Below, piece after piece: positions 5,659 through 8,637 of a stretch of DNA of 64,000 nt; position 1 is the stretch's first letter; each line of letters begins with the position of its first letter. The position numbers and the translations under genes were made by a program. The notes beneath the pieces are model-generated. The model made no database searches. It saw nothing but the letters and a program-made list of their open reading frames with translations, and was not told the origin of the DNA. Source of the DNA: a virus (lineage: Duplodnaviria > Heunggongvirae > Uroviricota > Caudoviricetes); the IMG/VR virus record IMGVR_UViG_2718218139_000007. One strand, 5' to 3'.

Positions 5659-6279
5659 TACCTGTATGGAGCACGGCATGTCCGGACTGGGCAGAGCGCC
5701 TGAAAAAGGGGCTGTCGATTATTCCGGCTCCGATTTATCCGGACCAGGCTGCACATGCACTGGCGATTTTTAAACAACTGCGGATTGTGGATGCACCGGG
5801 TAGCCCGACATTCGGGGAGTCCTGTGCACCGTGGGTGTTTGACCTGGTGGCGGCCCTGTTTGGCTCCTACGATGCGCAGACCGGTGTTCGCCATATCAAG
5901 GAAGTGTTTATCCTTATCCCCAAGAAAAACTCGAAGTCCACGCTGGCCGCGGGGATCATGATGACTGCACTGTTACTGAACTGGCGGCAGGCGGCGGGTT
6001 ACACGATTCTGGCCCCGACAGTGGAGGTGGCAGCCAACGCCTTCAACCCTGCCAGGGATATGGTACGACGGGACGATGATCTGGATGACCTCTGTCAGGT
6101 GCAGACACATATCCGGACCATCACCCACAGGGTGACGGACACCACCCTGAAGGTGGTGGCAGCCGATCCGAATACGGTGTCCGGTATCAAGTCCGTGGGG
6201 ACGCTGATTGATGAATGAGGTAGCCTGAGTTTAACGGACACTCCTTCCTGAAATAGAATGGCATCAGAAGGAGCTAATA

Positions 6280-6582
6280 ATGAGCAGAAAAACCCAACGT
6301 TACTCTAAAGAGTTCAAAGCCGAAGCTGTCAGAACGGTTCTTGAAAATCAACTTTCGATCAGTGAAGGCGCTTCCCGATTATCTCTTCCTGAAGGCACTT
6401 TAGGACAATGGGTTACCGCCGCCAGAAAAGGGCTCGGTACTCCTGGTTCCCGCACGGTGGCTGAACTGGAATCTGAAATTCTGCAACTGCGTAAGGCGTT
6501 AAATGAAGCTCGCCTTGAGCGAGATATATTAAAAAAAGCAACAGCGTATTTTGCACAGGAGTCGCTGAAAAATACGCGTTAA
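6280..6582 (+). CDS. IS3-family transposase OrfA (HTH)
   Basis: 100-aa HTH protein with leucine-zipper-like C-terminus; overlaps orfB in the -1 frame. Confidence 0.85.
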   Translation: MSRKTQRYSKEFKAEAVRTVLENQLSISEGASRLSLPEGTLGQWVTAARKGLGTPGSRTVAELESEILQLRKALNEARLERDILKKATAYFAQESLKNTR

Positions 6583-6617
6583 TCGAACAATGGCGACAAC
6601 AATTTCCCATTGAAGCG

Positions 6618-7436
6618 ATGTGTCAGGTATTTGGTGTATCCAGGAGCGGTTATTACAACTGGGTACAGCATGAACCCTCAGACAGAAAACAAAGTGATGA
6701 GCGGCTAAAACTGGAGATTAAGGTGGCACATATCCGCACTCGCGAAACATATGGAACCCGGCGGCTCCAGACGGAGCTGGCAGAGAATGGCATCATCGTT
6801 GGTCGTGACCGACTGGCACGTCTTCGTAAGGAGCTAAGGCTACGCTGTAAGCAGAAACGCAAGTTCAGAGCGACTACGAACTCGAACCACAATCTGCCAG
6901 TTGCGCCAAATCTGCTGAACCAGACGTTCGCTCCTACAGCACCAAATCAGGTCTGGGTGGCGGACCTGACGTATGTTGCCACACAGGAGGGATGGTTGTA
7001 CCTCGCTGGCATCAAAGATGTTTATACGTGCGAAATTGTCGGCTACGCCATGGGAGAGCGCATGACAAAAGAGCTGACAGGTAAAGCCCTGTTTATGGCG
7101 CTCAGGAGCCAGCGCCCACCTGCCGGGCTAATCCACCACTCTGATCGAGGTTCACAGTACTGCGCATACGATTACCGGGTCATACAGGAGCAGTTTGGTC
7201 TGAAAACATCAATGTCGCGTAAAGGTAACTGTTACGACAACGCTCCGATGGAAAGCTTCTGGGGAACGCTGAAAAATGAGAGCCTGAGCCACTATCGTTT
7301 TAATAACCGGGATGAAGCCATCTCAGTAATACGGGAATACATTGAGATTTTCTACAATCGTCAGCGTCGTCACTCTCGTCTGGGGAATATCTCCCCGGCA
7401 GCCTTCAGGGAAAAATATCATCAGATGGCTGCTTAA
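6618..7436 (+). CDS. IS3-family transposase OrfB (DDE catalytic domain)
   Basis: Integrase-core DDE region (…HHSDRGSQY…, …CYDNAPMESFWGTLK…); probably expressed as OrfAB by -1 frameshifting. Confidence 0.85.
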   Translation: MCQVFGVSRSGYYNWVQHEPSDRKQSDERLKLEIKVAHIRTRETYGTRRLQTELAENGIIVGRDRLARLRKELRLRCKQKRKFRATTNSNHNLPVAPNLLNQTFAPTAPNQVWVADLTYVATQEGWLYLAGIKDVYTCEIVGYAMGERMTKELTGKALFMALRSQRPPAGLIHHSDRGSQYCAYDYRVIQEQFGLKTSMSRKGNCYDNAPMESFWGTLKNESLSHYRFNNRDEAISVIREYIEIFYNRQRRHSRLGNISPAAFREKYHQMAA

Positions 7437-8637
7437 AAAAAGAACAAATGGTAGTGTCCGCTATTGCCAGTACACCTCAGAACTGTGGCTGTTTGGCAAG
7501 CAGTACAAGGCGGAGGACATGTTACGTGAAGCCATTGGCGGGCTGGCTTCACGTCCGGAAGGGTTTGTGGTGTACACAACCACCCAGTCAAATGAGCCGC
7601 CTGCCGGGGTGTTCAGGCAGAAACTGCAGTACGCCCGGGATGTGCGCGACGGTAAAATTCATGATCCACATTTTCTGCCGGTGATTTTTGAGCATCCTCC
7701 TGAAATGGTGGAGAGCGGTGAGCACCTGCTGATGGAAAACCTCGCCATGGTTAACCCGAATCTCGGTTATTCGGTGGATGAGGCCTTTCTGTACCGGGAG
7801 TATCGTAAAGCCCGGGAAGAGACTTTCCGCGGTTTCATGTCAAAACACGCCAATGTGGAAATTGGTCTTGCCCTGCGTTCTGACCGCTGGGCAGGGGCGG
7901 ATTTCTGGGAGCAGCAGGGCAGGCGCGTCAGCCTGGACGATATCCTGCAGCGCGCTGATGTGGTGACGGTGGGGATTGACGGCGGGGGCCTGGATGATCT
8001 GCTGGGAATGTACGTGACTGGCCGTGACAGGGAAACCCGCGAATGGCTGGGCTGGGGCCATGCCTGGGTGCATGAAACCGCGGTGGTCAGACGGAAGAGT
8101 GAGGCATCCCGGTTTCAGGATTTTGTGGCCTGTGGAGACATGACGATTGTCCGTCGGGTCGGGGATGACACGGCGGAAGTGGCGGAGTATGTGCGTCGTA
8201 TTCATGAGGCTGAGTTACTGGATCATATCGGTATTGACCCGTCAGGTGTGGGGCAGATTCTGGATTCACTGGCGGAAGCCGGGATCCCCGATGAGAGTGT
8301 GGTGGGGATAAGCCAGGGCTGGAAGCTGGGCGGGGCCATCAAAACCACCGAGCGCAAACTGGCTGAGGGAGTGCTGGTGCATGGTGGTCAGCCACTGATG
8401 GCCTGGTGCGTTGGCAATGCCCGGGTGGAGCCTAAAGGTAACGCCATTCTTATCACCAAACAGGCCAGCGGACGGGGAAAAATTGACCCTCTGATGGCGC
8501 TCTTCAATGCGATGTTCCTGATGTCCCTGAATCCGGAACCGAAAAAGAAAGCGTATGAGGTTTTTTTCATATAACCCTGCTCACCCTGTAACCATCATGA
8601 ACCGCTGCGGCGGTTTTTTTATTTTCAGGAGGCTGAT

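Follow-up and report, generated by a model that had tools for sequence, protein, structure and literature searches.

Introduction

Insertion sequences (IS) are commonplace in the prophage genes of enterohemorrhagic Escherichia coli (EHEC) and Shigella. IS600 was first described in Shigella sonnei and has expanded in Shigella, enteroinvasive E. coli, and several lineages of E. coli that make Shiga toxin (STEC). Here we analyze a copy of IS600 that lies within the terminase large subunit gene (terL) of a prophage contained in a 64,000-nucleotide stretch of viral DNA (IMG/VR record IMGVR_UViG_2718218139_000007), which we refer to as the window.

Two described systems come closest to this locus. 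In prophage Sp4 of the O157 strain Sakai, an IS lies in nu1, the small-terminase gene, and other defects are also present (Asadulghani et al., 2009; PMC2669165). Sp4 DNA is packaged in trans, most likely by the terminase of Sp14, a prophage with a nearly identical cos site (PMC2669165). In STEC O121:H19, insertion of IS600 into lacZ accounts for delayed lactose utilization, and simple excision of the element, mediated by the IS-excision enhancer (IEE), restores lactose use (PMC9397093).

The window prophage resembles Sp4: both are lambdoid EHEC prophages that carry other defects and have lost a terminase gene to an IS. In Sp4, however, the small subunit is hit by a different IS and packaging in trans has been shown, whereas the window prophage is known from its sequence and lacks the 3' part of the portal gene together with tail genes. 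With lacZ::IS600 it shares the element itself and the simple inactivation of a gene in an STEC background. The lacZ insertion is phenotypically reversible and lineage-wide, whereas terL::IS600 is apparently private to one strain, and restoring terL would have no effect because the portal, connector, and tail genes are gone. Overall, we consider it very likely that IS600 transposed into terL of an effector-carrying lambdoid prophage in an E. coli of the attaching-and-effacing or Shiga toxin type, the host prophage having an arrangement that we take to be Sp9-like.

Results

Position of IS600 in terL and duplication of its target

The two parts of the interrupted gene and the bases that border the element are as follows.

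5655..6215, plus strand: 5' part of terL, codons 1-187, with Walker A K91/K94 and Walker B D186/E187 (PF03354, TerL_ATPase)
6213..6215, plus strand: left GAA of the target-site duplication, the codon of Walker B Glu187; a single GAA is present at the empty site of the two intact reference genes (E. coli ESDR8 and JNE132847)
7480..7482, plus strand: right GAA of the target-site duplication, read from the sequence
7483..8574, plus strand: 3' part of terL, codons 188-550, with C-motif T220, the ATPase lid, and the nuclease domain (PF20441, TerL_nuclease)

The 5' terL open reading frame (ORF) extends from 5655 to 6218, its stop codon being the TGA with which the IS opens (6216-6218). Since the element begins with TGA, the frame ends right after the catalytic residue Glu187. 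Excision of 6216-7482 in silico yields an uninterrupted ORF of 1653 nt (550 codons) in which both PF03354 and PF20441 score above cut-off and no further stop or frameshift is present. This rejoined gene is 99% identical in DNA sequence to annotated intact terL genes, and its product shares 98.9% protein identity with TerL of O145:H28 ompW prophages and Stx phages. The earlier note had proposed this excision as a check, and a continuous 550-codon terL was indeed obtained. Yet every excision variant (the IS alone, with one GAA, or with both) stays in frame, their sizes differing by multiples of 3, so restoration of the frame is no proof of a target duplication. For this reason we rejected it as a test and used a comparison with the empty site instead.

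As references we used the loci of E. coli ESDR8 and E. coli JNE132847, both of which have an annotated intact terL of 553 aa. In these genes, the sequence across the insertion site (...GACGCTGATTGATGAACTGTGG..., also given as ...GATTGATGAACTGTGG...) has a single GAA, and the match to the rejoined gene is collinear to its left and right. When the intact locus was compared with the window by BLAST, two segments were returned, and their overlap consists of exactly the three GAA bases. The duplication of GAA that had been claimed, with its copies at 6213-6215 and 7480-7482, is thus proven by the single GAA of the empty site. We also surveyed eight other IS600 copies. Direct repeats flank seven of them (five of 3 bp, one of 4 bp, and one that can be read as 3 or 4 bp); the remaining copy has its left flank in common with another copy and is evidently rearranged.

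The effect of the insertion on TerL can be read against the HK97 large terminase structure 6Z6D, which a PDB sequence search matched to the rejoined protein with E = 4.8e-10. Pfam and the PDB search both recognized the protein, whereas NCBIfam gave no TerL match. In the alignment, K91/K94 correspond to Walker A K57/K60, D186/E187 to Walker B D153/E154, and T220 to T186 of the C-motif/sensor I. Residue numbers of the PDB chain and of the paper differ by 10. E187, the catalytic glutamate of Walker B, is the residue that the duplicated GAA encodes. In HK97 TerL, the corresponding variant E154A has neither ATPase nor packaging activity (PMC9410871). In the predicted products, the ATPase core is split between Walker B and the C-motif, and terL as it stands is a pseudogene whose polypeptide is divided after E187. 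From this arrangement, it can be safely inferred that the prophage has lost its own terminase activity.

After in silico excision, the window protein has the two-domain layout of HK97-type TerL (6Z6D), with an N-terminal ASCE ATPase and a C-terminal RNase H-like nuclease in a single polypeptide. The gene context is also shared, with genes for an HNH endonuclease, the small terminase subunit (terS), TerL, a protease-capsid fusion, and the portal. The match is nonetheless a distant one, and the window gene differs from that of HK97 in being interrupted and in having a 3-aa deletion between the domains. HNH endonucleases are packaging accessories of HK97-type cos phages. The two genes upstream of terL are listed here.

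4449..4979, plus strand: HNH endonuclease gene, preceding the terminase genes (Pfam HNH, PF01844), in the same place as the annotated HNH gene of ESDR8 and JNE132847
5095..5658, plus strand: terS, intact (Pfam Terminase_2), 564 nt, 99.5% identical to JNE132847 terS with no indel

The order of the packaging module, with terS at 5095-5658, the protease-capsid gene at 8638-10574, and the portal gene from 10786, is that of ESDR8 and JNE132847.

Anatomy and identity of the element

The element consists of the following parts.

6216..7479, plus strand: complete IS600, in the same orientation as terL, 1264 bp, with 100% nucleotide identity to annotated E. coli and S. sonnei copies of IS600
6216..6242, plus strand: left inverted repeat of IS600, TGAGGTAGCCTGAGTTTAACGGACACT (inverted repeat I1, 27 nt, 70% complementary), a single occurrence in the window
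7453..7479, plus strand: right inverted repeat of IS600, AGTGTCCGCTATTGCCAGTACACCTCA, the partner arm of the 27-nt inverted repeat
6280..6582, plus strand: IS600 orfA, 100 aa (Pfam HTH_Tnp_1)
6537..7436, plus strand: IS600 orfB frame, with the DDE transposase domain (Pfam rve, rve_2, rve_3, and HTH_21)
6531..6537, plus strand: A7 slippery run, predicted from sequence to be a -1 programmed frameshift site giving the OrfAB transposase
6540..6580, plus strand: predicted stem-loop 3' of the slippery run (RNA fold -13.1 kcal/mol, z = -2.1; inverted repeat I15)

A 1264-bp IS3-family element with orfA and orfB had been described at this position, and its extent (6216-7479) proved exact; its Pfam domains are HTH_Tnp_1, HTH_21, and rve. 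Its first bases are TGAGGTAGCC and its last bases GTACACCTCA. The terminal inverted repeats, noted earlier as imperfect, match at 19 of 27 positions on exact alignment and end in 5' TGAGGT and 3' ACCTCA, the imperfect TG...CA ends of the family. Each arm occurs once in the window and was found in none of 100 shuffles.

As a stand-alone ORF, orfB covers 6618-7436 (272 aa) in the -1 frame relative to orfA, and Pfam rve matches it with an E-value of 3.2e-26. Joining the two frames at the A7 run gives an OrfAB protein of 385 aa, which is the length of the joined coding sequence that the Prokaryotic Genome Annotation Pipeline (PGAP) labels "programmed frameshift". OrfAB scores 414.5 bits against NCBIfam NF033516 (IS3 family transposase; cut-off 160 bits) over profile positions 1-369 of 369. 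Its catalytic triad is D229/D289/E325, with spacings of 60 and 36 residues and a lysine 7 residues past the glutamate. The stem-loop at 6540-6580 is a likely stimulator of frameshifting, a role for which the fold gives modest support. An Rfam scan of window positions 4000-10000 at E <= 0.1 gave no family, including at this stem-loop.

Over all 1264 of its nucleotides, the window element is identical to PGAP-annotated IS600 copies in at least 10 E. coli chromosomes and plasmids and in plasmid A of S. sonnei 53G. PGAP labels these identical copies "IS3-like element IS600 family transposase" (WP_085948186.1) with a programmed frameshift, and the name IS600 as used here rests on this annotation rather than on an ISfinder entry. 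In ISfinder practice, elements above ~95% identity are the same IS. IS600 matches were found in 3,486 of 5,426 complete E. coli genomes, 1,613 of which have a near full-length copy; the window copy is identical to the commonest IS600 sequence. Other members of the IS3 family (IS629, IS1203, IS911) were considered and ruled out by the 100% identity to IS600. The kinship expressed by the earlier designation "IS600-like" therefore stands, but the qualifier does not: judged by its sequence, the element is IS600 itself. This copy is full-length and apparently intact and functional. It shares the traits of IS600 (IS3 family, IS3 group) that can be read from sequence: orfA and orfB with a predicted -1 frameshift, a DDE transposase, imperfect TG...CA inverted repeats, and a 3-bp duplication. 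Compared with other IS600 copies, the element itself shows no differences, and only its site, codon 187 of terL in this prophage, is particular to it.

Distribution of the insertion

The same insertion is present in a public assembly, GCA_003015325.1, and the kind of event is already known. Contig PVMG01000001.1 of this assembly encodes the exact 187-aa N-terminal and 351-aa C-terminal TerL products, and its layout (terL-N, orfA, orfB, terL-C, a 454-aa portal ORF, and a 1078-aa tape-measure ORF) is that of the window. Aligned with window positions 1-14217, the contig has zero mismatches and a single gap, located in a run of G in the capsid gene. The IS600 insertion, a 9-bp deletion in terL, and a fusion of portal and tape-measure genes, the last two described below, are common to the window and GCA_003015325.1. 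The window is not a simple slice of this contig, since its end would fall 8.4 kb past the contig end.

Elsewhere, the exact left IS junction had 0 matches in GTDB species representatives, and a 300-nt query across the junction found no spanning genome among the complete E. coli genomes. A look-up of the 187-aa product in public assemblies returned 19 contigs, only one of which extends far enough for the IS to be seen. In other assemblies, seven or more short-read contigs stop exactly at terL codon 187. They differ from the window in a synonymous allele (ACA versus ACG) and in the upstream HNH gene (121 versus 176 aa), and two of the short contigs carry on with base C, as in uninterrupted terL. 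We did not count these contigs as the same insertion, given that selection by exact product length favors contigs that break at this point. Their common end could be a recurrent break point, an insertion hot spot, or a selection effect of the look-up.

Other lesions of the same prophage

Further lesions were identified by comparison with the syntenic prophage of JNE132847, in which the structural genes are complete apart from the portal gene, annotated by PGAP as frameshifted. Two of the affected genes lie directly downstream of terL.

8638..10574, plus strand: prohead protease/major capsid fusion gene, frameshifted by a change from G5 to G4 at 8760-8763
10786..12353, plus strand: 5' part of the portal gene; a 4.25-kb deletion has joined it, at 12353/12354, to the tape-measure gene

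In terL itself, 9 bp are deleted in frame at 7813/7814, inside an imperfect 9-bp tandem repeat (GCCCGGGAA GCCGGGGAA), at a cost of 3 aa from the stretch that separates the ATPase domain from the nuclease domain. The longer form is present in each of the 94 complete E. coli genomes that span this position, one of them maybe further expanded, and the short allele is common only to the window and GCA_003015325.1. In the fusion gene, the loss of one G splits a 645-aa protease-capsid protein into ORFs of 60 and 580 aa. A homopolymer sequencing error is a possible source of this frameshift, because GCA_003015325.1, which shows no other difference from the window in 14.2 kb, has G5 there and an uninterrupted gene of 645 aa.

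The 4.25-kb deletion takes seven whole genes (head-tail connector, head closure, gp10-like, tail completion, major tail, and both chaperones), as well as the 3' part of the portal gene and the 5' end of the tape-measure gene. The portal gene (454-aa ORF) is thereby fused to the tape-measure gene (1078-aa ORF). Microhomology at the point of fusion amounts to only ~2 bp, and this junction occurs in 0 of the 5,426 complete genomes. Farther downstream, a deletion at ~17163-17176 has removed tail assembly gene I and the N-terminus of J, with 9 bp of microhomology (GAACACGGC), and another at ~19154-19161 has removed the C-terminus of J, lom, and the N-terminus of the tail fiber protein. Taken together, the prophage reads as a multiply defective remnant in which the IS is neither the sole disabling lesion nor demonstrably the first.

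PGAP calls the portal gene "frameshifted" in both ESDR8 and JNE132847, whose prophages are otherwise intact (compare window 10786-12150). This suggests that the portal frameshift may be a conserved feature, such as a programmed frameshift or a fused scaffold, and not damage.

Effector island, stx2 region, and second prophage

An island of type III effector genes lies between the two prophages of the window at 21477-31902 and is 98% identical to O26/O111-type strains. The nleA, nleH1-2, nleF, nleG, and espM1 genes downstream of the first prophage are also present in JNE132847, at 98.7% identity.

21477-22799, minus strand: nleA
23455-24195, minus strand: truncated integrase gene
24612-25532: nleH1-2
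25598-26167: nleF
28324-28971, minus strand: nleG
29155-29745: espM1
31252-31902: NleG-like DUF1076 gene

The integrase remnant suggests the trace of a third prophage that has been almost wholly deleted. Features of the Shiga toxin region are listed next.

47571-47821: tRNA cluster
47910-48863: stx2A, broken into ORFs of 123 and 168 aa
48879-49148: stx2B, intact

The first phage tRNA (47571-47647) is Met (CAT) according to ARAGORN, and PGAP names the homologous gene tRNA-Ile, presumably because of a lysidine-modified CAU. In the first two tRNAs of the window, indels relative to O157 occur at 47627, 47673, and 47706. The stx2a locus matches that of O157 apart from ~20 indels of one or two bases and neighboring changes, with ~15 small indels in stx2A. 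Relative to strain 28RC1, the indels begin abruptly at 47,627 after 4.1 kb without any. They continue at ~1 per 100 bp into a fragmented nanS-p-like esterase gene, the stretch reaching from 47627 to at least 50401. Because plain substitutions relative to O157 are nearly absent, this pattern suggests a low-quality consensus and not natural decay. In a look-up of public assemblies, no record was found of the C-terminal stx2A fragment or of ORF 52515-53198.

Downstream of stx2, a holin match at 52231-52522 (~87% identity) is the only lysis-region marker seen, and it adjoins the middle of a lambda-type tape-measure gene at 52580. Given that the holin match abuts this gene midway, terminase and head genes are missing from the second prophage. 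Window positions 52,580-64,000 match two places of PVMG01000001.1 (2495-13919 and 645-664 kb) with zero mismatches and with 16 and 11 indels, respectively. Either an artifact (of a contig end or of circularization) or a real recombination between prophages could have produced the junction at 52,580. Both it and the indel stretch in stx2A look like problems of assembly quality more than biology. At the end of the window, downstream of tail fiber genes, nleC (63014-64000; Peptidase_M85) runs off the edge. NleC is a zinc protease that degrades NF-kB p65.

Discussion

The arrangement described here can be accounted for by a transposition of the kind established for the IS3 family (IS911, IS3, IS2), in which the element is copied out and pasted in via a circular intermediate. 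For this copy, catalysis by OrfAB would follow the same route. OrfAB, made by -1 ribosomal frameshifting at the A7 run, would copy the IS out as a circle, which would then be pasted into the target with 3-bp staggered cuts; repair of the stagger would duplicate GAA. Translation of terL would halt after Glu187. Both Walker motifs would sit on the resulting 187-aa fragment, and a separate, promoter-distal fragment would hold the C-motif, ATPase lid, and nuclease domain. The prophage would presumably no longer be able to make its own packaging motor. On this account, the insertion would be one step of ordinary prophage decay that helps to fix the nleA/nleH/nleF/nleG/espM1 cargo in the chromosome.

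No observation speaks against the insertion as such, and the weak points of this account lie in its consequences. The terminase defect might be complemented in trans, as related terL genes number up to 7 per EHEC genome. Consequences for expression and packaging in this strain are deduced from the DNA. The order of the lesions is not told by the sequence, the IS and the deletions both being private among the complete E. coli genomes. In addition, GCA_003015325.1 may not be independent of the source of the window. Finally, single-base lesions near the IS, such as that in the capsid G-run, are unreliable, given the clusters of single-base indels elsewhere in the assembly.

The first two points bear on the claim of the earlier note that the insertion alone would leave the prophage unable to package DNA. 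This claim is reasonable for the prophage's own enzyme. It needs qualifying on two counts: several other disabling lesions are present, and a related co-resident prophage might package the DNA in trans, as in Sp4 (PMC2669165). Given the Sp4 precedent and the number of related terL genes in EHEC genomes, a prophage that cannot package itself is not the same as a prophage that cannot be packaged.

Among the alternatives, the strongest is that the prophage was already dead when IS600 arrived, the deletions having come first, so that the insertion in terL was neutral and without functional consequence. The loss of seven whole essential morphogenesis genes and of parts of the portal and tape-measure genes argues for this order. 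A recent insertion would also fit the identity of the element to the commonest IS600 sequence and the otherwise undecayed state of terL. The undecayed terL, however, is equally consistent with all of the lesions being recent, and the deletion junction is as private as the IS junction, with no intermediate genome by which the events could be ordered. We regard this order of events as plausible, though slightly less probable than not.

A second alternative is a reversible switch, in which the IEE of STEC precisely excises IS600, restores terL, and so toggles packaging. Excision of this kind is known from lacZ in STEC O121:H19 (PMC9397093), a perfect 3-bp repeat flanks the element in the window, and excision leaves a terL whose one flaw is the 3-aa deletion. 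A restored terL would nevertheless not give a viable phage from a prophage whose portal, connector, and tail genes are deleted; moreover, the window contains no iee and no selection for switching is apparent. A switch thus seems very improbable. A related proposal invokes a reversible lock, whereby precise excision in an iee-carrying strain would restore a terminase that packages this or a sibling cos-compatible prophage, mobilizing nleA/nleH/nleF with the help of co-resident prophages; we give it equally little credence. Least probable of all is that the placement of the IS is an assembly artifact, for instance a chimera that a repeat induced in a draft from long reads: the assembly of the window does have stretches rich in indels and, at 52,580, a suspicious junction, but exact IS ends with a 3-bp duplication that is single-copy at the empty site are the signature of transposition rather than of a misjoin, and GCA_003015325.1 has the same structure, with zero mismatches over the 14.2 kb around the IS.

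Transposition of IS600 into terL, which remains our preferred account, adds one more case of IS-mediated prophage decay in an STEC or atypical enteropathogenic E. coli genome and is of small importance outside annotation. It accounts for the calling of terL as two fragments, and the junction, absent from the 5,426 complete genomes, is usable as a strain marker. For users of the record, the indel-dense stx2A stretch and the junction at 52,580 may matter more. For the biology of the prophage, the finding means that this effector-carrying element would be unable to propagate on its own. A broken terminase is by itself no proof of an unpackageable prophage, given that trans-complementation is known in EHEC.

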